NCBI GenBank assembly: GCA_964460325.1 | Contig: CAYWPI010000001.1 | Coordinates: forward strand, 108,551 to 162,320 | DNA from: an uncultured Candidatus Saccharibacteria bacterium | GTDB taxonomy: Bacteria; Patescibacteriota; Minisyncoccia; UBA6257; 1-14-0-10-44-23 | DNA: 53,770 nt | Direction of reading: 5' to 3' | Part shown: one piece after another, positions 40,321 through 53,770 of the stretch | How positions within the stretch are numbered: the first letter of the stretch is position 1 | How the letters are laid out: every line of letters starts with the position of its first letter | The notes under the pieces: generated by a model | The model's database searches: none | What the model was told of the DNA's origin: nothing | The model's input: only the letters and a program-made list of their open reading frames with translations | Made by a program: the position numbers and the translations under genes

Positions 40321-40427
40321 CAGAAAGTGAGTAGTAGGCAGTATGTAGAAGGTAGTAGAGATACAGAAAGGAATCCTTTGCCTGTTTTGAATCTACTACG
40401 ACCAACTATATACTATCTTCTTCGCTT

Positions 40428-42497
40428 CTATCTTTCCCCCTCCAGCTTCTCCAGCTCCCAGATTTCCTGCCCCACCTTGCCCTCAATCACCTCCAGGTCT
40501 TGCATAATCTGCTGTTCGCGACGCTGTTCCTCTGTTGAAAGCTTGCGTTCCATTTTAATTTTTTTAATGAGCGCAAACTCCATTTCCATGTCATGACGCA
40601 ACAGAGCAAACCCACGACGGATAGACTCTTCTCCTTTACGCACCTCCTCCAAAAACTTACGATGCTCCCGTTTAATAACGCTCCAGTGGCGAATCACTAA
40701 AAATCCAAGCGTAAACACAATCGCCACCAAAACGCCAATAATGAGCAAATAGGCTAACTCATAACTGACACGGGCTGGTCCAAGCTTAAGCGCACCTGTG
40801 CGCACAACCATAGTCAGCTGCGAACTGGGCGGACTCATGGTCTCGCCTATTCTGCTCTGCGACCAAAGCACATAATTTCCCTTTGTAAGCGCCGCGGGGT
40901 GGTGATAAAACCACTCACCACTTTCATTCGAAACCGTTGCCGCCGAAAGCGTTTCACCAGTGGTAAGATTACTCCAATACACCACCACATCGGTTTGCGG
41001 CGTCACCGTTTCTCCACCCACATAAAACGTTTCCTCGGTGGTGAGATCGCGTGAAATTGTTGTTACGTGAGGCGGAGTCAACACCGATGTTGTGGTATTT
41101 GATTCATGAGCGGTCTGCGCCACTGTCACACTGCCGCCAATTCCCAACGAAAGAACAAAAAGCACAATGACGGCTATTTTGCCGTATTTTTTGCGATATA
41201 CTTTAAGCTCCTCAAGCTGCTTGCGAACCGTCTCGGGGACATTATTCTTCCGCTCATGCAAGCCAAGTCGCTTTGGCCAATGTTTAAGCCGCCAACCGGC
41301 AAATCCGAAAAAGAGCAACACAAGAAGTGCGACAAGCCAAAACCACATCCAGCTTATGGTAAACGCGCTGGTTATCCGCAACCCCTCGTTTTGCACTATC
41401 CCCAACAATGGACTCACAATCGCAAGTCGCCTGGTTACTTCACGATAGTTATATGCTTTATCATATGCCCGCAAAAGAACATCATAACTGCCCGGCTCAA
41501 GCGGGAAAAGGATATGCGGGCTTTGCACATCACTGAATAATTCTAAATCAGCTTCAGCTTCTGTAGTTCGCTGGGCAAGCGATATAACCTTCATCTCATA
41601 GTGATCAATGCCCGACTGCGCGTCAGTAGTAAAAAACTTTAGGACGGGCTGATCAACCGAGGTGCGCGCCGAAGGCAGAACTTCTATCTCAAACTCGGCG
41701 GGCGGTGTTTTATCTATATTAATTTGAAAATGAGTAACGCCGCCCCATACGCCATCTTGCAGGGAACGCACATGAAAGAAATACGTGCCGCTTTCAAGTT
41801 GAGTATAGGAAATTGTAGTTTGGGACCCTTCAGAAATGGTATCCGGCTTGAACAATGCGTCGTTATTCAAAATAAAACTATACCCTTCCGCGCCGGGCTC
41901 TCCAACCCATTCAATAACAGCATCCGTGTTTGAAAACCAGCGGGACTGATCGGGGTGCGTTGGCGAACTCACCGCCGGCCCAGCTGCTCTGGGCAACGTG
42001 GCGGCATATATCGCACCAGGAGTCCGCACAAGCACGTTCGTGCCCTGCCCATCGTTTGCTAACACTTTCGTGTCTGGCGTAAATTGCAAGAAAGAGCTCC
42101 CACTCGCTTTCACTCGAAAACGAATGGTAGTGATAAGACCGTTGGTGATGGTAATCCCTCCGGGAAAGCCACCCCGCATCTCTACCAAACCGTCTTTATT
42201 GTTAAACTTTGGCTGACCTGCCCAGATTTCAATGATAGATTTACCAGTGTTGGGCGAAACCACCTGAAGCTTATCTGCGGGGAATTCAAGCCCAAGCTCA
42301 ACGGCATTGATTTCTTGTCCCTGTGTATCTAATAAAATGGAAACATCAAATGTTTCACCAACTTCAAATGTTTGCGAGGCTGAAGAAAGAGAAAAAGTGG
42401 CAGCATGGGCAGAAGTAGGTAGTAAGTAGAGAGTAGTAAGTAGTAGGAAAGCAAAAACTAACCACCACTTTTTAATTTTTTGCATTTGGTTTTTCAT
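40428..42497 (-). CDS. Cohesin-domain polytopic membrane protein with a cytoplasmic coiled-coil tail
   Basis: 689 aa. Signal peptide ...LLLTTLYLLPTSAHAATF. Cohesin-like module (FEVGETFDVSILLDTQGQEINAVELGLEFPADKLQVV...). Ig/Fn3-like modules (THPDQSRWFSN...). Three internal TM helices. The C-terminus is charged and heptad-like. Confidence 0.62.
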   Translation of the reverse strand: MKNQMQKIKKWWLVFAFLLLTTLYLLPTSAHAATFSLSSASQTFEVGETFDVSILLDTQGQEINAVELGLEFPADKLQVVSPNTGKSIIEIWAGQPKFNNKDGLVEMRGGFPGGITITNGLITTIRFRVKASGSSFLQFTPDTKVLANDGQGTNVLVRTPGAIYAATLPRAAGPAVSSPTHPDQSRWFSNTDAVIEWVGEPGAEGYSFILNNDALFKPDTISEGSQTTISYTQLESGTYFFHVRSLQDGVWGGVTHFQINIDKTPPAEFEIEVLPSARTSVDQPVLKFFTTDAQSGIDHYEMKVISLAQRTTEAEADLELFSDVQSPHILFPLEPGSYDVLLRAYDKAYNYREVTRRLAIVSPLLGIVQNEGLRITSAFTISWMWFWLVALLVLLFFGFAGWRLKHWPKRLGLHERKNNVPETVRKQLEELKVYRKKYGKIAVIVLFVLSLGIGGSVTVAQTAHESNTTTSVLTPPHVTTISRDLTTEETFYVGGETVTPQTDVVVYWSNLTTGETLSAATVSNESGEWFYHHPAALTKGNYVLWSQSRIGETMSPPSSQLTMVVRTGALKLGPARVSYELAYLLIIGVLVAIVFTLGFLVIRHWSVIKREHRKFLEEVRKGEESIRRGFALLRHDMEMEFALIKKIKMERKLSTEEQRREQQIMQDLEVIEGKVGQEIWELEKLEGER

Positions 42498-42527
42498 ACT
42501 ACATACTACTGACTACATGCTTGGTTC

Positions 42528-43655
42528 TCACTTCTTCCCTATTATACCAGACGCCCAAACAAGCAACACAAAGAGAATTGCCATCCACACCCAGGCAGAA
42601 TAATTTTTCTGCGGACCAGGAATAAACTTTTCAATATAATTGCCCGCTTGATCATAAGCGCGCAAAGCAATAATCGAATACTCATCGGGCAGCGGTTGAG
42701 GAGAAAGAGCGGTAAACGGCTCCTCACTATCAATATGCACTTCATAATATTCAATTCCCGAAATCTGATCATCTGCCAAAAAAGTCAAAAACGACCGCCC
42801 TTCTGTTTCTGATATGCCTGCATTCTTTTTTACTTCCAGCCATACTGGATCTGAAACATCATTCATCAGTCGATAGCGCGAAACTACGTTGCTACCAACT
42901 TTTTTAACCGCAAAATACGTAATACCCTCCGGCACGTCATCTAACTTCAAATCCCCTTGCCACTGCGCCGATCCCCCTGGCCTGTCTGCAACATCATCAG
43001 GAACTTCAAGTGGATCCCTTGTTATGACATAACTATAGGAAGCCCCTGGCTCAAGCTCAAAATGAATCTGCGCCTTTGTGGCGGCATACCATTGCGTCTC
43101 GTCAGGGTGAGTCAGCGAAGTAATAGCCACATAATCTTTTGACGGCGGCAACACGCTCACCGCCGAACTCATCACATCAACGGAAACGCTCTTGCCGGTT
43201 CCATCAGCTAACAAAACTTTAACGGCCGATGGGACAAACGCAAGAGTCGCCCTACCCGGCAGCTCGCCGCGCAACGCAACGCGTGCCAATAAATGCTCTC
43301 CCGAAAGACCAGCGGGAATGCCACCAACCAATCGAAAACTTGATTTTCCTTTTATATTCGGTTGCTCAATAAAGACATCAATGGCCGAGCCAGCATTGTC
43401 AATTCCTCGTAAAGTTGCCGCCACGCCCGACAGAGATCCTTCAAGTTCAACCGCGTTAATACTTTCTCCTTCGGTATCGATGCGCACATCCACCAACGCT
43501 TCCTCACCGGGCATCAGCGAAATCTGTTGAGGGTAAAAATAGAGGGTGGCTGCTTGAGCAAAAGTAGGTAGTATGTAGAATGTAGTAAGCAGTAGCAGAT
43601 AAAATCCAAATCGCCCACTTCGCCCGATATGATTTTGTACATTCATGTGACGCAT
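42528..43655 (-). CDS. Cohesin-domain surface protein with a C-terminal TM anchor
   Basis: 375 aa. Signal peptide LLLLTTFYILPTFAQAATLYF. Cohesin-like module (ISLMPGEEALVDVRIDTEGESINAVELEGSL...). A THPDETQWY module. C-terminal TM helix. Confidence 0.62.
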   Translation of the reverse strand: MRHMNVQNHIGRSGRFGFYLLLLTTFYILPTFAQAATLYFYPQQISLMPGEEALVDVRIDTEGESINAVELEGSLSGVAATLRGIDNAGSAIDVFIEQPNIKGKSSFRLVGGIPAGLSGEHLLARVALRGELPGRATLAFVPSAVKVLLADGTGKSVSVDVMSSAVSVLPPSKDYVAITSLTHPDETQWYAATKAQIHFELEPGASYSYVITRDPLEVPDDVADRPGGSAQWQGDLKLDDVPEGITYFAVKKVGSNVVSRYRLMNDVSDPVWLEVKKNAGISETEGRSFLTFLADDQISGIEYYEVHIDSEEPFTALSPQPLPDEYSIIALRAYDQAGNYIEKFIPGPQKNYSAWVWMAILFVLLVWASGIIGKK

Positions 43656-43688
43656 ATATTTATTGTACTCCGACCTTGCTTTTTCCCC

Positions 43689-43722
43689 CTACTACGCACT
43701 ACATACTACCCTCTACCTACTT
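43689..43722. repeat. CTAC-rich intergenic element, copy 1 (CTACTACGCACTACATACTACCCTCTACCTACTT)
   Basis: Its first 28 nt are about 25/28 identical (hand alignment) to 48734-48761. It is also an inverted, imperfect copy of the signal-peptide-coding block at 43564-43597. Confidence 0.85.
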
Positions 43723-47089: not shown

Positions 47090-48295
47090 TTACTTCTTTC
47101 TGCGGCGACGAGAACGCATCTTGCGATAAGTTTTGCGCGAGAAAACAACCATAATCGCAGCAAGGATGCGGCGACTAAACTGCTTAATAAAGATGGTAAT
47201 AAGAGCCACAATACCAGCGACAATCAGCATGAGCTTCCATGGCATCACCCAAAAACCAACCGTTTCAGAAATAGTCGCCCCACCTGCGAATCCTGCGCCG
47301 GCCGCACTGTTTATATCTGGATACTCTAAAATAAGGGTTGCCGTATATTTACCAAGATATGCGTTGTCTTTGAAATAATTAACTACACCCCTTAAAAATC
47401 CCCCTTCTTTTTCGTTTGTGCCCAGCGGGATATCAAGCGAACGAATGCGACCGGGTAATAAATAGCGACCAGGTAATGCGATATGCTTCACTACCTCGCC
47501 CTGCCAGTTACGAATCTCTAGTCGTCCCATTGCCTTAAAATAAAACATGCCCGTGTTGCGCACCTTGGCGACCAATGTTTTGGCGACATCCTCCAAAATG
47601 CCCGCCTCAGCAACCGGCACAATACTACCCTGCGCAGAGGTGCGTTCATCCGTGAGTCCTAGTGAAATAATCTCGGCTGCATATCCGCTTTTTAGATCAT
47701 CGACTGAAAAAAATGGTACGCGGAAAAAGAACAATAAATTCATCTCCGGCACAAAGCGCGGACCAGTGCCTTCAAAATAATGCCCAGGCAAAATAGCTTG
47801 CAAACGCATCGTCACCAAATACGTTCCCGCCGGCACGTCTTTGGGCGGCACCACGCGAAACACTAACTCTTGCTCATCGGCTGGATTGAGAATGAAATCA
47901 TAGCCTGTTGTAAGCGGTTCAAGAATGGTTCTCTTTGCATTATCCGGGTCTGGCAATTCAAGATAAAACCACTTGGTTGCATCAATCTCATCATCCTCTG
48001 CGCTGATATATTCAATATCTTCTTCGGTGTTTTCTTTTAAGTTCCATAACGAAAGCTGCAGATGCATAGGCAACGGCAATTCGTTTGAGTTATTAAATAT
48101 CACCAACCGGTCTTGATACGTAGTACCAGGTAAGATTTCCGCCTCGAAAAGGCTTTTGTTGGTAGAAAAACCCAGCCCAGCTGCGTGGGCTTGGGGAATA
48201 GGTAGTAAGTAGTATGTAGAAAGTAGTATAGAAACAAAAAATACAGTGCGTAGTAAGTAGTGGGTAGTATGTAGCAAAAGACGGAACATAATCAT
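47090..48295 (-). CDS. CscA-like surface protein, paralogous architecture to 44654-45601
   Basis: 401 aa with signal peptide ...ILLSTYYLLPIPQAHAAGL, FEAEILPGTTYQDRLVIFNNSNELP, and a C-terminal TM helix plus RSRRRRKK. Confidence 0.55.
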   Translation of the reverse strand: MIMFRLLLHTTHYLLRTVFFVSILLSTYYLLPIPQAHAAGLGFSTNKSLFEAEILPGTTYQDRLVIFNNSNELPLPMHLQLSLWNLKENTEEDIEYISAEDDEIDATKWFYLELPDPDNAKRTILEPLTTGYDFILNPADEQELVFRVVPPKDVPAGTYLVTMRLQAILPGHYFEGTGPRFVPEMNLLFFFRVPFFSVDDLKSGYAAEIISLGLTDERTSAQGSIVPVAEAGILEDVAKTLVAKVRNTGMFYFKAMGRLEIRNWQGEVVKHIALPGRYLLPGRIRSLDIPLGTNEKEGGFLRGVVNYFKDNAYLGKYTATLILEYPDINSAAGAGFAGGATISETVGFWVMPWKLMLIVAGIVALITIFIKQFSRRILAAIMVVFSRKTYRKMRSRRRRKK

Positions 48296-48666
48296 GATCT
48301 TTTTTCAAAATTCGCAATAATTTTATTCAGCATGCTCATAACTTCATGTAGGAGATTGTCAACCCGTACAAGATCGTCTTTCTCAAGAAAGCCAAGATCA
48401 GTTGATAAGATAAGTTGCGTTTCTAATTCAGAACCCGAACCATAAGCGATCCTGAGAAATTGGATCTTTTCTTTAACCGACTTACGCCTAAATCCTTCTG
48501 CAACGTTAGAAGGAATAGATATTACCGCGCGACGTATCTGACTAGTTAGCCCAAATAACTCAGCCCCTGGGAAAGCATCGGTTAATCGATACACCAAAAC
48601 AACGAGCTCACGAGATCTCTGCCACACAATCAAATCCTGATATGTTTTTATTTTTTCCTTTTCCAT
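48292..48666 (-). CDS. Four-helix-bundle protein (23S rRNA intervening-sequence protein family)
   Basis: 124 aa reading YQDLIVWQRSRELVVLVYRLT..FP..E.FGLTSQIRRAVISIPSNVAEGF.R.S.KE...FL.IAYGS..ELETQL.... It has an ATGA overlap with the downstream gene. Confidence 0.85.
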   Translation of the reverse strand: MEKEKIKTYQDLIVWQRSRELVVLVYRLTDAFPGAELFGLTSQIRRAVISIPSNVAEGFRRKSVKEKIQFLRIAYGSGSELETQLILSTDLGFLEKDDLVRVDNLLHEVMSMLNKIIANFEKRS

Positions 48667-48733
48667 ATATTTGCACCTCTACTATATTCTACTCACTGCA
48701 TACTACTCACTTTCTCCCACCCCCTTCCCGCTC

Positions 48734-48768
48734 CCTACTACTCACTACCTACTACCCTCTACATACTT
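48734..48768. repeat. CTAC-rich intergenic element, copy 2 (CTACTACTCACTACCTACTACCCTCTACATACTTC)
   Basis: It lies immediately 3' of the giant ORF's stop (48771), the same position as copy 1 relative to the dockerin gene's stop. Confidence 0.85.
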
Positions 48769-48770
48769 CT

Positions 48771-51700
48771 TTAGAATTTCGGCGCAACAATGAAACGAAT
48801 AGTCGTCTGATAATCCCCCGCCGCCTGAGCGCGATCGACTGAAACCCTATAAGTCATAGTGGTCGCCTCACCCGTTACCCGACCGGCAGATGCGGCCACC
48901 TCATCGCCCGGCGTGCTAGTTGAAAAGGCGGCAAACTCATTTGTGGTAAATTGCGTAATATCCGCGTCATCCGTGTTATATCCAAAACCACAATCACTAT
49001 TATTGATGCAATTAGTAGTCCACACGGTTGGCGAGGCGTTAGTTCCCGTCCAGTTGGCGATTGTCGTGGTCGCGCCAACACGCGTAAGCAGGTCAGTTGC
49101 ATAACCCGTAAGACTATATCCAAACTCACCATTAGTAGTAACCGTCAGCGTATTAGTCGCGCTTGCAGTAAAGGTGTTTGTGTCGCCCAGAGACAAGTCA
49201 ATGGAAAGCGGGCTGATACTAAACGACAAACTCGGGAATGCCCAACAGAAGGCGTTGTTCCCCCGGTCTACGGAGTTGGCATAACTCACACTGATATAGG
49301 TGCTAGTTGAAACACAGCCGGAATCTTTCACCGTTACATATCGCACGTCTTCAGTGCCTTGGTGATTAATAAGCCACTGAGTGCCAGATGAGTTGGAATC
49401 AATCGTGATAAGGTTGCCCGCAGTGCCGGTAAGAGTCAGTAAACCATTTACGCGAAACGCTTGCGTACTTGTGGCAAACACAAACGGCTTATTCCCGGTT
49501 TGCGAGGTAAAGTTCCAGAATGTCAGTTCACTGGAGGTGGCGCCACTGATGGTTGAGGTGGCCGTGGTATCAAAGGTCACCGTACTGCTCCCTAAGGTAA
49601 CCGTGCCGCTGCTGTTAAAGTCTTTGGCAAACGTAAGGCCAGTGGTAGACGCCGTGAGCGCGCCAGCAGAGGCGATGGCCACGTTGCCGTCAACATCGAG
49701 TGAGTAATTGGTCACGCTCAAGGTGCCGGCAGTAAGTGTCAAATCATTAGTACTGGTGGTGTTGCCTTCAAGCACAAAGGTTTCGGTACTGGTGGCAATT
49801 TGAAGGTTCCAATAGTTTTCTGCCTGCATAGTGGTGTTGCCACCGGCGTTGTTACCACTATACACAAAGGTTGAGCTTGCAGAAGCAAGATCGGCGCTTG
49901 CCGAATTGGCAACCAATTTAAACGGATCACCAGTAGTGCCCGACAGTGTCCAAGTGCGATTGCCAGCATTGAGCACAGCATTGGCGCCAGCTCCTAAGCC
50001 GCCGTTAACCGTCAACTCCCCCGCGATAGCAAGATTGCCAGTGCCTGACGTTTGAGTCGTGAAGGTATAAGTGCCTGCGGTGGAAGTGGCAACAGTAAAG
50101 ACAAGATCGTTAAACGTCCAATCCCCGCTTGTTGAGCCAAAGCCTTGCGACGAAGTGGCGGCCAGGGTGACAGTGAAGCTTGCGTTAGTGAGCGAGATAA
50201 CACCTCCTGCGCCCGTCACGTCACCGTTATACACCTGGATTGAAGAGGTGCCATTACTGTTGTTGAGTGTGCCAGCAGTCATCGTAAGGTTACCGTCAAC
50301 CGCGCTTGAATCAAGCCCAACAACCATATCCGAGCTGCTCGGCGACCAACTCCCACCGACGCCATTGAAGGTTACATTGCGGAATGCTCGACTCCCTGGG
50401 TTAATCGAAAATCCAGTCGTAGTTGCAGTGAACGTAGTCACTTGACCAGAATCCGTGGTGAATGAACCATTCGCAGCATTATGCCAGTCACCGCCAATAA
50501 AAACCCAATTGGACCCAACCTCTAATGTAGAGGTTGATGATCCCCAAACAATATCTCCCCCAGGCTCGCTTGGTAAGGCGCCATTTTCAAGAGTAAGATC
50601 CGACTGGCTACCTAAGGTGGTAAACGTATCTCCTGGCCAAATATAAAGACCCCAGTCAGCGTCTATGGAAACCAATTGGGCACCAGTACCGAAATGAAGA
50701 TCATTATCACCGCACGCAAGACCAATTGTGTAGTTACATAATTCGAGATGAGCATCTGTAAGAGGCCCGGTATTTTCATGCCGCACAATTAGATAATTCT
50801 TGTAGATATTTAGCCCAGCGAGATTCCCCGAGCTTGAAGCAAGAGTTACTACAGCTCCGGTTCCATTTCCTCCTCCGTTATTATTCATCCAAACTGTTAG
50901 AAGCGTCCCCGAGGAAACTCCAGCTACTGAAGTAAAGGTGAAGTTTCCGCTTGCGTCCGTACTCGTTGTGTATCCTGTCGTTCCATTAACTGCTAATTTT
51001 ACGCTCGAGGTTGTAGTGGTTATCCCCTGATCAGAATAAACCGTTCCAGAAACAGTAATGCCGGTAGCCGGCGTGCCATACGTTGTAATCTCGGGCACAT
51101 AAAGCGGCGTTGAAGTCGCACCATTAGCATCAACAATACGGAAGCAATAGGCAACGCCGGGATTAGTGCCTGTATCCCGAAGCGCAAACTGCCACACACC
51201 ATCAGAACCAGAAGTCAAAGCACTGCCAAGATCTGGATATCTGCCTCCCCCACGGGTGAAGTTGCCAAAGGTAGTACCGCTGGCGGAAAAGTTATTCTGT
51301 TCAACATGGGTTAAGCCCCTAAGAAGATCAGTGGTGTGCGTGGCGTCATCAAGACCGCCGTGGATGAGCGAGTCATGAGCTCGACCAGAGAGGTCGGTGA
51401 ATCGAATGACTCCTGTTGAAGTGGCCACATCAGTATACGTCTCACCAGAGTAGGCCACGTCACACGTGCCTGATTTTTCAGCCACTTGGAGCTTAAATGT
51501 TTCCGTGGAGGCGATACTGCGGGAAGCGTGGACAGTAGAACGGAGGATGAAGGGGGTGGAGGTGACTGATGGAGTGGTGGTGGCGGTATTAAGCGCCGAC
51601 GAGGTGGCGATATCAGTCTGATACGCGCGAATACTCCAATCCGAATCCGCATTATCAACAGTTGACAGATAAATAATACGCGACCCATCCGCAGCTATCC

Positions 51701-53770
51701 CATTATTTTGAGAAGCAGCGGCTGAACCATTTGAGCTTGTAGCATACACAAGACTCAAATCGGAAAGATTCCTCTTCTCCAAACGATTATTACTTGTACC
51801 CGATATCCCAACCACATACATATAAGAACCGTCAATTGCTATGTTATAAGCTTCGTCCGTAGCACCAGGATTACTGGTTGTTGAGGTGACAAGCGCCAAA
51901 TCGGATAAATTACGCTTTTCAATGCGCCAATTAACATCATCTTGCTCACCGACAACATACATATATTGGTTATCAATCGCAATCGAATACGCCCGGTCAG
52001 TAGTGCCCGGATTACTAGTTGTCGAAGCAACAGAGCTTAGATCCGACAATAATCTCTTTTCGATACGCCAATTAACATCATCTTGAAAGCCGACTACATA
52101 CATATAAGTACTGTCAATCGCTATTCCTCTCGCAACATCAGTCGTCCCAGCATTTATAGTGACACGGCTCCCAACTAAATCTAAGGTTGATTTATCACGT
52201 TTTTGAATGCTCCAATTTACTTCGCCTGCAGTGGATCCAACAGCGTAAAGATAGGTAACATCCTGAGCGAGGCTGTGAAAATACTCTAATCCACTTACAT
52301 CTTCCGTGAATGAGTCAACAAGAGCACCGTCAGATAGGTTGCGTTTTTCGATCCTAAAATCATTATTTGACGGCTGTGCCATGCCCGCAACATATATATA
52401 CGCATCATCGACAACAACAGCTCTTGCACGATCATTCCCACCAGGGTCACTTGAGGTTGACCAAATAATACTTCCATCTGAGAGCGATCTCTTTTCAAAG
52501 TACCAATTATTTTCTCCGCTTATTGCAGCAGAACCAGCAAGATACACATAACCTTGATCTATAGCCACTGTAAGTCCAAGATCTGCCACGCCAGGGTTGC
52601 TTGATGTTGAAAAGACCACACTTGGTTCACTACTCGTCGCAAACCATCGATAACCAGAAACATAAGGGCTACCCATATTGAGCGTTGGATATCTAGTGTA
52701 AGTTCCCAACTCAGTTCCATCATCTTCCACCATGCGGAAGTAGTAGTTGGAAACGGTGGTAGTGGCGATATCAAGGGAGAAGTCCCACTCCATGTCTTGG
52801 CCCACCGTTGCGGCTGTTGGGTTGGCATCTGTTGGATTATCCTCTTGATAACTCTGTTTAGCATCAGAGCTTGTGAGAAGGTTAGAAGTGATAGCCGCGT
52901 CGTCTGCGGGGGTGGTGTTGTTATAGAAGCGAATATCGCCAGTTGAGGTGGCGACGTCGGTCCAGCCATAACCGGTGTAGTAGACGGTAATTTTAATATG
53001 ATCAACTTGCAATTGAGCCGGACAACTTCCACCAGCGCATGTGCCGCTAAGCGCGACTCCAAAATCACTTGAGTTGATATCACTCGCAGTCCAGGTTAAC
53101 CCCCATAATTCCGTCGAAGAACCATACGAATCCTCACTCTCTCCTCCCCAAAATAAACTCGTTGAAGCCATCTCTGTCCCCGAAATTGATCCACCCTTTA
53201 CTATCTTTACAGAATTATCAGACGTCGCCGCACCTCCTGCCCTCTCAAAAGTCACCACGATACCGTCAATGGTCGCATCTGACGGAATACTAAATCCGAA
53301 ATTGGTTGCCTTTAAATAATTTGAAATTACCGTGCTTCCGACAGTCGCAGTTGCGTTAAGATTATCGCTCGTAGTCGCATTCCCTGGATTGGTCCATGCA
53401 ACAGTCCCTGTACTAGTATCATTCACCACCGTTGCAGTTGAAGTCGGTCCCACAGTAACGCTCGATACCGAGCTCGTTGCAAACTGGAGCTTAAAGGCCT
53501 GTGTGCTTGTTGAAAGTGTACTCCCGCCGACTGTCACGTTCATACGCAACCGAGCTTGGCCAAGAGTAGTGGTTGTATAGCTACTGTTTTCAGATGCTAA
53601 CGAGCTCCCTGGCTGAACGCCATCGGCAGCCGCATACCAACGGTACTCGTTTTGAGTGAAACTAACTGGCGGACTATAGGTCGTAATCTCGGGCACATAC
53701 AGCGGCGTTGAAGTGGCACCATCGGTGCGCACCACACGGAAACAATAACTCGCCGCCGGAGCTGCTGAAT
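48771..53770 (-). CDS. Giant secreted surface protein (>1654 aa; N-terminus beyond the window end). It contains repeated beta-sandwich modules, a ~7-blade beta-propeller, a beta-helix-like region and a WxL-like C-terminal domain.
   Basis: The frame remains open from 53735 to the window edge, and the upstream residues continue a repeated module (..CFRVVRTDGATSTPLYVPEITTY). 47-aa repeats read NWRIEKR.LSDL..V.S.TSNPG..D.A..IAID..YMYVVG. The C-terminus is ...RAQAAGDYQTTIRFIVAPKF. Confidence 0.85.
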   Translation of the reverse strand, partial: SAAPAASYCFRVVRTDGATSTPLYVPEITTYSPPVSFTQNEYRWYAAADGVQPGSSLASENSSYTTTTLGQARLRMNVTVGGSTLSTSTQAFKLQFATSSVSSVTVGPTSTATVVNDTSTGTVAWTNPGNATTSDNLNATATVGSTVISNYLKATNFGFSIPSDATIDGIVVTFERAGGAATSDNSVKIVKGGSISGTEMASTSLFWGGESEDSYGSSTELWGLTWTASDINSSDFGVALSGTCAGGSCPAQLQVDHIKITVYYTGYGWTDVATSTGDIRFYNNTTPADDAAITSNLLTSSDAKQSYQEDNPTDANPTAATVGQDMEWDFSLDIATTTVSNYYFRMVEDDGTELGTYTRYPTLNMGSPYVSGYRWFATSSEPSVVFSTSSNPGVADLGLTVAIDQGYVYLAGSAAISGENNWYFEKRSLSDGSIIWSTSSDPGGNDRARAVVVDDAYIYVAGMAQPSNNDFRIEKRNLSDGALVDSFTEDVSGLEYFHSLAQDVTYLYAVGSTAGEVNWSIQKRDKSTLDLVGSRVTINAGTTDVARGIAIDSTYMYVVGFQDDVNWRIEKRLLSDLSSVASTTSNPGTTDRAYSIAIDNQYMYVVGEQDDVNWRIEKRNLSDLALVTSTTSNPGATDEAYNIAIDGSYMYVVGISGTSNNRLEKRNLSDLSLVYATSSNGSAAASQNNGIAADGSRIIYLSTVDNADSDWSIRAYQTDIATSSALNTATTTPSVTSTPFILRSTVHASRSIASTETFKLQVAEKSGTCDVAYSGETYTDVATSTGVIRFTDLSGRAHDSLIHGGLDDATHTTDLLRGLTHVEQNNFSASGTTFGNFTRGGGRYPDLGSALTSGSDGVWQFALRDTGTNPGVAYCFRIVDANGATSTPLYVPEITTYGTPATGITVSGTVYSDQGITTTTSSVKLAVNGTTGYTTSTDASGNFTFTSVAGVSSGTLLTVWMNNNGGGNGTGAVVTLASSSGNLAGLNIYKNYLIVRHENTGPLTDAHLELCNYTIGLACGDNDLHFGTGAQLVSIDADWGLYIWPGDTFTTLGSQSDLTLENGALPSEPGGDIVWGSSTSTLEVGSNWVFIGGDWHNAANGSFTTDSGQVTTFTATTTGFSINPGSRAFRNVTFNGVGGSWSPSSSDMVVGLDSSAVDGNLTMTAGTLNNSNGTSSIQVYNGDVTGAGGVISLTNASFTVTLAATSSQGFGSTSGDWTFNDLVFTVATSTAGTYTFTTQTSGTGNLAIAGELTVNGGLGAGANAVLNAGNRTWTLSGTTGDPFKLVANSASADLASASSTFVYSGNNAGGNTTMQAENYWNLQIATSTETFVLEGNTTSTNDLTLTAGTLSVTNYSLDVDGNVAIASAGALTASTTGLTFAKDFNSSGTVTLGSSTVTFDTTATSTISGATSSELTFWNFTSQTGNKPFVFATSTQAFRVNGLLTLTGTAGNLITIDSNSSGTQWLINHQGTEDVRYVTVKDSGCVSTSTYISVSYANSVDRGNNAFCWAFPSLSFSISPLSIDLSLGDTNTFTASATNTLTVTTNGEFGYSLTGYATDLLTRVGATTTIANWTGTNASPTVWTTNCINNSDCGFGYNTDDADITQFTTNEFAAFSTSTPGDEVAASAGRVTGEATTMTYRVSVDRAQAAGDYQTTIRFIVAPKF

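Follow-up and report, generated by a model that had tools for sequence, protein, structure and literature searches.

The window, meaning the whole 53,770-nucleotide stretch of DNA that was analysed, comes from the 708-kb genome of an uncultured Candidatus Saccharibacteria bacterium. In this window, a minus-strand operon carries a small gene, hereafter the cargo gene, between a giant adhesin gene and the gene for a 401-aa protein. In the sense direction, two GTAG blocks are followed by the cargo gene and then by two CTAC blocks (Table 1). The sequence-only reading had described the cargo gene as bracketed by these blocks, and every feature it listed there is present.

Table 1 Features of the cassette and of related hairpins in the window
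Feature	Position	Strand	Remarks
Giant adhesin gene, 3' part (continues beyond the window)	48771..53768	-	TAA stop 48773-48771, separated by 4 nt from the outer 5' arm
Outer 5' arm, 4-5 GTAG-heptamer units	48730..48768	-	Sense GTAGAGGGTAGTAGGTAGTGAGTAGTAGGGAGC; pairs with 48191-48232 in the minimum-energy fold
Spacer between 5' blocks, purine-rich	48711..48729	-	GGGAAGGGGGTGGGAGAAA; internal loop in the arms-only fold
Inner 5' arm, GTAG heptamers	48677..48710	-	GTGAGTAGTATGCAGTGAGTAGAATATAGTAGAGG
PF05635/TIGR02436 four-helix-bundle gene (cargo)	48292..48666	-	124 aa; RxxxSxxxNxxE motif intact
401-aa secreted or membrane-anchored protein gene	47090..48295	-	ATG overlaps cargo stop (ATGA)
Inner 3' arm, 4 CTAC-heptamer units	48249..48280	-	In frame: LHTTHYLLR of the 401-aa protein
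Outer 3' arm, 4 CTAC-heptamer units	48191..48232	-	Translated ILLSTYYLLPIP, hydrophobic core of the signal peptide
Gene-less hairpin, same heptamer family	43563..43721	-	GTAG arm 43721-43690 after the stop of the 296-aa gene
Gene-less hairpin, same heptamer family	42414..42516	-	GTAG arm 42516-42498 adjoins the ATG (42497) of the 689-aa gene
GTAG block 40331-40359 with weak CTAC partner (~40392-40400)	40331..40402	+	Between convergent efp and the end of the 689-aa gene

Profile searches match the 124-aa ORF to PF05635 (E 6.4e-37, 126.4 bits; cut-off 33.8) and TIGR02436 (E 7.3e-36, 122.7 bits; cut-off 24). With both curated cut-offs exceeded, the cargo protein is a member of this family, and its earlier assignment to the four-helix-bundle proteins of 23S rRNA intervening sequences (IVS) holds. 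Residues 8-113 also match PDB 2GSC (XCC0516; E 3.5e-24), a relative with a solved pentameric four-helix-bundle structure. To our knowledge, PF05635 proteins have been found in rRNA intervening sequences since the 1990s with no function established, and we know of no transposase-like activity on record for them. The RxxxSxxxNxxE motif, which is conserved in PF05635-type proteins (PMC3936711), reads RAVISIPSNVAE in the cargo protein (P0001). The genome encodes four PF05635 proteins, with 48-58% mutual identity.

One possible role for such a protein is that of Avd, the accessory protein of a diversity-generating retroelement, which would here act on the neighbouring adhesin. The cargo protein comes from the same fold family and gives a weak NF033474 match. 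However, this match scores 17.8 bits, far under the cut-off of 80, no reverse transcriptase (RVT_1) was found in a search of the genome, and a template/variable repeat pair was not seen. Barring a reverse transcriptase in sequence missing from the assembly, the Avd reading is refuted for this genome, and we give it next to no credence.

The arms of the cassette are mutually complementary, as had been noted from the letters alone, with 73-81% complementarity across 27-37 nt. The ungapped inverted-repeat score at the cargo gene is 16, compared with 8.1 (max 10) for shuffled sequences (z = 8), which puts it in the top 1% among 620 genes of the genome. In a minus-strand fold of 48150-48800, the region proposed for folding by the sequence-only reading, the arms did pair in the minimum-energy structure, but the overall z reached just -1.4, owing to the dominant 375-nt coding loop. 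For duplex stability, this fold was replaced by an arms-only construct. Joined by GAAA, the arms form a nested stem in two segments with an energy of -75.4 kcal/mol, compared with -53.4 +/- 4.5 kcal/mol for 200 dinucleotide shuffles (z = -4.9), none of which was as good. Arms that form no stable duplex relative to shuffled sequence were one part of what the same reading had named as refuting its claim; the duplex proved stable. A duplex-energy calculation on 130-nt flanks was discarded as too permissive, and its sense and antisense energies were inconsistent among loci. A promoter and terminator scan of the cassette gave nothing above chance.

Such arms could in principle constitute an invertible DNA switch, in which recombination between them would flip both the cassette and the first part of the 401-aa gene and cause phase variation of the surface operon. 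The presence of inverted arms beside surface-protein genes is the sole point in favour of this idea. However, the operon contains no recombinase gene, the arms are merely ~30 nt long and ~80% alike, and a flip would detach the 401-aa gene from its start codon. Moreover, the orientation is the same in 3/3 orthologous filled loci, and the layout also turns up in housekeeping operons and in T4SS-like operons. DNA-level inversion, which had been put forward as an option, is therefore very improbable.

The cassette is closely tied to the translation signals of its neighbours. A Shine-Dalgarno-like GAGGTG (48679-48674) lies 7 nt ahead of the cargo ATG and overlaps the 3' end of the inner 5' arm. The cargo TGA stop and the ATG of the 401-aa ORF overlap as ATGA, as previously described, and this overlap is kept in the orthologous loci L111 and L112. 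Codons 1-38 of the 401-aa protein (48295-48182) form a predicted signal peptide ending AHA/AG, a site that coincides with the start of the mature N-terminus in all homologues. The CTAC blocks lie in frame within codons 6-35, which bears out the earlier proposal that they encode this signal peptide. The 3' arm is open in all frames, with no stop codon, and specifies a Leu/Thr/Tyr-rich peptide. In every filled locus, the 3' arm codes for the signal peptide of the 401-aa orthologue. The downstream array is thus predicted to have been co-opted to encode the signal peptide of this protein. Because the signal peptide sits inside the arm, the codons that first specified it must have been either replaced or converted, an unexplained step that complicates a simple-insertion history. 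The possibility that the 5' arm is a translational insulator with stops in three frames was also considered; it is true for the GTAG family (3 frames vs 0) but not general, since frames with stops average 2.2 in 5' arms against 1.8 in 3' arms.

Comparison with relatives defines the insertion. Adhesin orthologues (1467-1788 aa) lie directly upstream of the 401-aa orthologue, and the junction is empty in six relatives (G004, G008 and L114-L117), where 4-27 nt separate the adhesin stop from the ATG. The same junction holds a PF05635 cassette in the present genome (G000) and in two relatives, L111 and L112, and a GxxExxY (PF13366) cassette with TACGAAA arms in L113. The earlier proposal of a cassette with insertion boundaries is thus upheld, as is its description of an intervening-sequence-like context, with an ORF-bearing cassette between inverted arms inside a protein operon. 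Among the orthologous cassettes, complementarity within a locus exceeds that across loci (16 vs 11.5 and 7.5; 12.5 vs 8; 26.5 vs 7.5 and 9; 15 vs 8; 13 vs 6). Since complementarity persists while arm sequence turns over, either the pairing itself or one factor recognising both arms is under constraint. These comparisons suggest that the arms are a property of the cassette rather than of the insertion site. The identity of the cargo proteins is close to that of their neighbours (55.6% vs 54%; 62.7% vs 61%). We infer that the cassette has probably resided in part of the lineage for a long time and been inherited vertically, an aspect that the sequence-only reading had missed. There is no sign of movement: no near-identical cassette copies were found in the genome and no target-site duplication could be defined at the junction. 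The filled loci are not one resolved clade in the tree, which is compatible with either a single gain followed by loss or repeated gains.

The layout extends well beyond this junction. All four PF05635 genes of the genome (4/4), whose contexts were catalogued as the earlier reading had suggested, have inverted tandem-repeat arms, and the arms differ among the four copies. With bracketing defined as an inverted-repeat score of at least 14, 20 of 32 PF05635 loci sampled in the order (25 genera) are bracketed, compared with 6/620 control genes of this genome (Fisher p = 8e-25). The arm period is 7 at 14 loci, 8 at seven, 9 at two and 10 at one. Flanks of PF05635 genes contain TAG 83 times upstream and 27 times downstream, and CTA 30 and 71 times. 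PF13366 genes show a different motif: in the order, ACGAA occurs 20 times upstream and 3 times downstream, and TTCGT 0 and 36 times. In a set of 78 PF13366 loci that spans Bacteroidota, CPR and others, the corresponding counts are 191 and 14 for ACGAA and 10 and 215 for TTCGT, and scoring arms are present at 61 of the 78. All 12 PF13366 genomes (12/12) also carry PF05635; one GxxExxY protein is encoded at C11:14399-14719. Two patterns absent from the earlier reading emerge from these sequences: the gene-in-hairpin layout is general for PF05635 and PF13366 genes, and the arm motif follows the cargo, with TAG/CTA for the former and ACGAA/TTCGT for the latter. A simple protein-to-arm code within PF05635 was rejected: L008 and L009 also have GTAG arms, yet other proteins are closer to P0001 than theirs. 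We also rejected the idea, prompted by weak Pfam hints, that cassette copy 2 splits a VirB4/TraC-like gene; the 235-aa ORF concerned is a separate gene (212-252 aa) in 28/30 relatives, and its orthologues stand as a separate gene also in relatives without cassettes.

The operon also holds three gene-less hairpins of the GTAG/CTAC family (Table 1). In the hairpin at 43563..43721, the loop contains the start codon of the 375-aa gene (ATG at 43655) and the CTAC arm (43597-43563) codes for YLLLLTTFYILPT of the signal peptide of the 375-aa protein. In that at 42414..42516, the CTAC arm (42447-42414) codes for LLLTTLYLLPT of the signal peptide of the 689-aa protein. Across the genome, we counted ~28 GTAG blocks and 98 period-7 blocks, compared with 0 after shuffling, and 16 inverted pairs, compared with 0 in the null. 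The median copy number of the 98 period-7 blocks is 4.7, with 4-5 units in 83 of them; 91/142 period-7/8 blocks lie outside ORFs. Matching of arm 15-mers across genomes showed the G000 arms to be modestly enriched in their own genome, with noisy results for AT-rich arms. The density of period-7 blocks per 100 kb is 4-26 in eight genomes with PF05635/PF13366 genes and 0-4 in seven without, so that block density follows gene presence over the 15 genomes (Mann-Whitney p = 0.0006; Spearman 0.84). The arms of the cassette are part of a family of heptamer blocks found throughout the genome, gene-less hairpins among them, which had gone unnoticed in the earlier reading. Separately, three contig ends of the genome stop inside heptamer blocks.

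With so many blocks, the bracketing might be a coincidence: slippage-made STRR-like heptamer repeats would fill intergenic gaps, and a small accessory gene would sit between two of them by chance. The 98 period-7 blocks are mostly outside ORFs, ordinary genes are sometimes bracketed (rplN, rplB and an MBL-fold gene), and four-unit heptamer repeats and inverted pairs have been described without a gene link (PMC4692102). However, the difference in bracketing frequency between PF05635 and control genes, the specificity of the motifs for cargo and strand, the change of arms with the cargo at one junction and the near absence of blocks from genomes without these genes all argue against chance. The coincidence reading is thereby disfavoured, and we consider it improbable.

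We then propose a model for the locus. On balance, we think it likely, though by no means certain, that the locus is an old, vertically inherited IVS-type gene-in-hairpin cassette that is now wired into translation of the operon. It would consist of a 5' array of ~4 TAG heptamers, a small PF05635 cargo gene and a complementary CTA-bearing 3' array. The cassette would have entered the tight junction of the giant adhesin and 401-aa genes in an ancestor of the lineage and been inherited vertically since; mobility of the cassette is presumed. As judged from the sequence, it would be transcribed within the operon, translation of the cargo would start from its own GAGGTG site where the 5' arm ends on the inner side, translation of the 401-aa gene would be coupled to it via the ATGA overlap, and the 3' arm would double as signal-peptide coding sequence for the 401-aa protein. 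Any factor recognising both arms would most likely be the cargo protein itself. By analogy with rRNA IVS, the RNA stem would be a substrate of RNase III, which is encoded in the genome, and the cassette may be looped out and processed at the RNA level; translating ribosomes would melt the stem.

Alternatively, the stem may serve the host as an RNA element, with the cargo gene as a mere passenger in its loop. Here, RNase III would cut the mRNA stem as in rRNA IVS, parting the adhesin mRNA from the downstream mRNA or tuning translation of the secreted proteins. The stable nested stem, the encoded RNase III, the equivalent 23S rRNA layout cut by this enzyme in Coxiella (PMC4990558), the Shine-Dalgarno-like site of the cargo within the inner stem and the three further same-family hairpins at gene junctions of the operon, two of which have a start codon in the loop, are consistent with this. 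However, cutting the stems would sever signal-peptide codons from the starts of the 401-, 375- and 689-aa genes, and orthologous operons function without any hairpin. The arm motif tracks the cargo family across phyla and is not predicted by operon function. Among the arm mismatches, 21 are sense G.U, 32 antisense and 95 other, so that the sense-strand G.U excess expected of selection at the RNA level is absent. Taken together, we regard a host-serving element as rather unlikely.

Returning to the inherited cassette, it is tempting to speculate further that the cargo proteins are trans-acting partners of their own arms, which seed and maintain the four-unit heptamer hairpins across the genome. 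In this scheme, the ring-shaped PF05635 pentamer would bind 4-5 TAG-bearing heptamers, one unit per subunit, and arrays of TACGAAT would be the binding or cleavage target of the GxxExxY nuclease. We put this forward as a tentative possibility.

We know of no explanation for heptamer tandem repeats, which have been known as long as PF05635, since the 1990s. The locus ties the PF05635 family to such repeats in a 0.7-Mb genome, and the link is testable. If cargo proteins do act on their arms in this way, the IVS protein family would gain a function, and the excess of heptamer repeats long noted in bacteria, for instance in Xanthomonas, Nostoc and CPR, would be accounted for. The cassette also illustrates how an element may settle in a compact operon at no cost, with a hydrophobic 3' arm that is open in all frames and apparently reused as a signal peptide. 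Such arms are likely to confuse start-codon calling, repeat finders and assemblers.

Among known systems, the 23S rRNA IVS of Leptospira and Coxiella burnetii (S23p IVS, PMC4990558) carry the same cargo family, with the gene in the loop of a terminal-inverted-repeat stem of ~28 bp (4 x 7), inserted sporadically in a transcribed unit with both filled and empty sites. In contrast, the copy reported here lies between protein genes in an mRNA operon, outside any rRNA helix; the only 23S gene in the genome (C1:7485-10517) contains no cargo insert, and no Rfam matches were found at the four PF05635 loci. The 3' arm here appears to be translated as a signal peptide and the downstream gene coupled to the cargo, and any RNase III excision would damage that next gene. 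A PF05635 gene also lies between two operon genes, with tiny gaps, in the cas operons with 23S_rRNA_IVP genes, which were read as possibly Cas-associated with no description of flanking arms (PMC3936711).

REP/REPIN-RAYT systems, and MITEs with their parent element, likewise have a gene with inverted copies of a short repeat on its two sides, doublets (hairpins) and singlets of that repeat that lack the gene and are dispersed in intergenic gaps, several gene copies each with its own repeat family, and co-presence or co-absence of repeats and gene across genomes. Unlike these, the cargo here is a four-helix bundle with no known catalysis, and neither a Y1/RAYT transposase (PF01797) nor a reverse transcriptase was found in the genome. 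The repeats here are tandem 7-8-nt units rather than a single palindrome, with no near-identical copies or signs of recent movement.

Cyanobacterial STRR are comparable heptamer simple-sequence repeats. The heptamer repeats of Xanthomonas and Nostoc (PMC4692102) share the 7-nt unit, the preference for ~4 units and the intergenic location between co-oriented genes near stops and starts, with frequent convergent inverted pairs. A G-quadruplex explanation was proposed for the four-unit preference of those repeats (PMC4692102); it cannot apply here, because G-tracts are absent from the units (GTAGNNN, AGCTNNN and ACGAANN). The blocks reported here differ further in being linked to two cargo families.

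The GxxExxY/PDDEXK_3 (PF13366, TIGR04256) cassettes have an identical architecture and share genomes with the PF05635 cassettes. The copy in L113 occupies the very same junction, and its 3' arm also encodes the signal peptide. Their cargo has a PD-(D/E)XK nuclease fold, and across phyla their arms keep the unit (T)ACGAA(T), whereas PF05635 arms vary and have TAG alone as the common element.

The window spans C1:108551-162320 of a 708-kb genome (19 contigs, 48% G+C, estimated 97% complete); at its end, the minus strand carries an operon coding for secreted or surface proteins. The 124-aa product of its second gene, the cargo, matches PF05635 (E 6.4e-37) and TIGR02436 (E 7.3e-36) in profile searches, as well as XCC0516, a solved pentameric structure (PDB 2GSC; E 3.5e-24). 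A sequence-only reading had assigned it to the four-helix-bundle family of rRNA intervening sequences (IVSs), and these matches bear this out. As that reading also had it, the gene is wedged between the giant adhesin gene and a 401-aa gene, its stop codon overlaps the ATG of the latter (ATGA), and GTAG and CTAC blocks bracket it, partly coding the 401-aa signal peptide.

Features of the surface operon, in operon order (window positions)
Feature	Position	Strand	Remark
Giant adhesin gene	48771 to window end	-	First in operon order
Outer 5' GTAG-heptamer block	48768-48730	- (sense)	Starts 4 nt past adhesin stop
Purine-rich spacer		- (sense)	Separates the two 5' GTAG blocks
Inner 5' GTAG block	48710-48677	- (sense)	GAGGTG site at its end, 7 nt ahead of cargo ATG
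124-aa cargo gene	48292-48666	-	Second, after giant adhesin
Two 3' CTAC blocks	48280-48249 and 48232-48191	-	Codons 6-35 of 401-aa ORF
Genes of 401, 413, 315, 296, 375 and 689 aa		-	In this order after cargo gene

The arms are mutually complementary, as had been claimed. The inverted-repeat score across the cargo gene is 16, against 8.1 (max 10) with shuffled flanks, and lies in the top 1% among 620 genes of the genome. Joined by a tetraloop, the arms give a nested stem in two parts, with a folding energy of -75.4 kcal/mol (shuffles -53.4 +/- 4.5; z = -4.9; 0/200 as good). In the proposed fold of the whole 651-nt region the same arms pair, but the overall fold is not significant (z = -1.4). 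Directly past the outer 3' arm (48174-48191, minus strand) lies a terminator-like stem with a T-run (AGCCCACGCAGCTGGGCT GGGTTTTTCT). It falls at the signal-peptidase site inside the coding sequence of the 401-aa gene; such stems are no more numerous than expected by chance.

The gene-in-inverted-arms layout is a property of the PF05635 gene family. The remaining three PF05635 genes of the genome (two on contig C4, one on C3) all have inverted tandem-repeat arms, each with a different unit (GTAGGAAA-type 8-mers, AGCTNNN heptamers and an A/T-rich unit), and no PF05635 gene of this genome lies within rRNA. The family occurs in 24 of 31 genomes of the order. Inverted-repeat scores of at least 14 were found at 20 of 32 PF05635 loci (25 genera) versus 6 of 620 control genes (p = 8e-25), with arm periods of 7 (14 loci), 8 (7), 9 (2) and 10 (1).

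Cassettes recur beside a conserved 235-aa TraC-N-like gene of a T4SS-like locus, both here (C4:15738-17200, locus L002) and in six relatives (G002, G003, G005, G009, G014 and G028). PF05635 genes stand at both flanks of this gene in the source genome, G009 has PF13366 upstream and PF05635 downstream, and in G004, G008 and G011 nothing occupies these junctions. L002 and L031 encode orthologous cargo proteins with 70% identity, yet have unrelated arm units. At L007 (G030:C2), L029 (G030:C17) and L011 (G012:C8), the PF05635 frame is open into ORFs of 429, 618 and 263 aa, which may represent fusions to the gene downstream. At L008 (G001:C31), GTAG/CTAC arms enclose a PF05635 gene that is interrupted by an internal stop, and a type IV pilin-like gene has its leader (MHPLQTTHYKLKARKG/FSLIE) encoded by the 3' arm.

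The junction was compared across relatives by reading the contigs that encode homologues of the 401-aa protein. Six junctions (G004, G008 and L114-L117) are empty, with the adhesin stop, 4-27 nt and an ATG, and the 401-aa orthologues there have an ordinary short signal peptide. L111 and L112 carry a PF05635 gene at the identical position with the ATGA overlap kept; L112 has AGTAANN / NNTTACT arms, and L111, truncated by a contig end, has a 3' arm of two ACTAT/CTAT blocks. L113 instead holds a 136-aa GxxExxY / PDDEXK_3 gene (TIGR04256, 7.6e-26) between TACGAAA and TTTCGTA arrays. At every filled locus the 3' arm forms the signal-peptide codons of the 401-aa orthologue (MNFFRTFVQFRTFVWARTFVW... 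in L113), and the mature N-terminus A/S-LGFS-NKSLF-AEILPGTTYQD is conserved among all homologues. A target hairpin older than its cargo would not switch its arm motif with the cargo at this one junction.

In the neighbour-protein tree, the source genome and L111 form one clade, and L112 and L113 lie at the base of its sister clade, whose 8-member inner group has an empty junction wherever looked at. Cargo identity is close to neighbour identity (55.6% vs 54%; 62.7% vs 61%), which fits long vertical residence with later loss; alternatively, the cassette may have been gained repeatedly. The sequence-only reading had set its cassette against a stable, unflanked operon member lacking a stable duplex. 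In part of the lineage the gene is indeed stable within the operon, but it has flanking arms, and these do pair as a stable duplex.

The arm motif is specific to cargo and strand. In the 80 nt on either side of PF05635 genes, the upstream and downstream counts are 83 and 27 for TAG and 30 and 71 for CTA (p = 2e-11). Around PF13366 genes of the order, they are 20 and 3 for ACGAA and 0 and 36 for TTCGT. Scoring arms are present at 61 of 78 further PF13366 loci, which come from Bacteroidota, several CPR groups and other groups; there the counts are 191 and 14 for ACGAA and 10 and 215 for TTCGT. GxxExxY / PDDEXK_3 (PF13366) genes are packaged alike at C11:14399-14719 in the source genome and at loci L118-L140 and L166-L245; the arm unit, (T)ACGAA(T) on the upstream side and (A)TTCGT on the downstream side, is conserved in Bacteroidota as well as in several CPR groups and others. 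Between orthologous cassettes the arm sequences have changed and are still complementary inside each locus (16, 12.5, 26.5, 15 and 13, versus 6 to 11.5 across loci); by this comparison the arms co-evolve, and they appear to belong to the cassette.

Tandem Repeats Finder identified 98 period-7 blocks scoring at least 40 in the source genome versus 0 in the locally shuffled genome, period 7 being far ahead of every other period. Four to five units make up 83 of the 98 (median length 33 nt), and the families are AGCT-type (42 blocks), GTAG/CTAC-type (about 37), ACGAA-type and others. A phase-aware scan gave 28 blocks with at least three in-phase GTAG/CTAC heptamers, mostly of four units, several of which pair as short gene-less GTAG-loop-CTAC hairpins. 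Strict inverted pairs number 16 (0 in the null), 11 with 25-92-nt loops and 5 with a gene in the loop. The same operon has three gene-less GTAG-family members; at the 296/375 and 375/689 junctions, the GTAG arm comes after the stop of the preceding gene, the loop contains the start codon, and the CTAC arm codes the signal-peptide hydrophobic core (YLLLLTTFYILPT and LLLTTLYLLPT).

Elsewhere, the intergenic gaps around rplN, rplB and rplV in a ribosomal-protein operon (C2:8000-12400) contain ACGAA-type 7-8-nt hairpins as well as single arms, immediately ahead of start codons, and an ACGAA-type block (C1:7401-7430) adjoins the 23S gene 3' end. At C8:23538-24269, GTAGGAAA-type 8-mer arms surround ~650 nt with elevated G+C; the 146-aa ORF in this stretch lacks a Pfam match and may be a third kind of cargo. 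The genome's best inverted pair (C3:5118-5830; TTCTTAA heptamers, 93% identity, score 26) encloses an ordinary-looking 212-aa MBL-fold gene (Lactamase_B_3). GTAG/CTAC blocks lie at three contig ends (C3:64979-65003, C7:12-43 and C10:20-44), the C7 start being the reverse complement of the C10 start; the assembly is broken by the repeat family.

Across 15 genomes (samples of 29-708 kb each), period-7 density per 100 kb was 13.8, 11, 18, 4, 26, 23, 8 and 18 in the eight with PF05635 or PF13366 genes and 0.9, 4, 0, 2, 2, 0 and 0 in the seven without (Mann-Whitney p = 0.0006; Spearman 0.84 with gene count; both ignore phylogeny). All 12 genomes carrying PF13366 also have PF05635.

No movement was seen in the source genome, whose four PF05635 proteins are 48-58% identical, and no target duplication is definable for the cassette. 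Y1 transposase and reverse transcriptase are both absent from this genome, so the element was rejected both as a strict REP/RAYT system and as a DGR. Arm mismatches comprise 21 sense-strand G.U, 32 antisense and 95 other; with no sense excess, they give no sign of RNA-level selection. RNase III is encoded, and a stem cut would detach the 401-, 375- and 689-aa coding regions from their start codons. Any mechanism beyond the architecture is inferred, be it recognition of the arms by the cargo, processing by RNase III or mobility.

In all, the element is a hairpin cassette of the IVS type that resides in a protein operon and has three local peculiarities: its arms are double; the 3' arm has been co-opted as a signal peptide, with predicted translational coupling; and in relatives the junction is empty or holds the same cargo or another cargo with other arms. 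Heptamer repeats in Xanthomonas and Nostoc prefer four units and frequently form inverted pairs, ascribed to G-quadruplexes (PMC4692102); in contrast, the units here have no G-tracts, and thus that explanation is not transferable. We found no paper tying the PF05635 family outside rRNA to such arms; cas operons with wedged-in PF05635 genes have been described, arms not being mentioned (PMC3936711). CPR rRNA insertions also carry PF05635 ORFs (PMC11270868), and in the Coxiella 23S rRNA IVS a 28-bp stem, cleaved by RNase III, encloses a member of the same protein family (PMC4990558).
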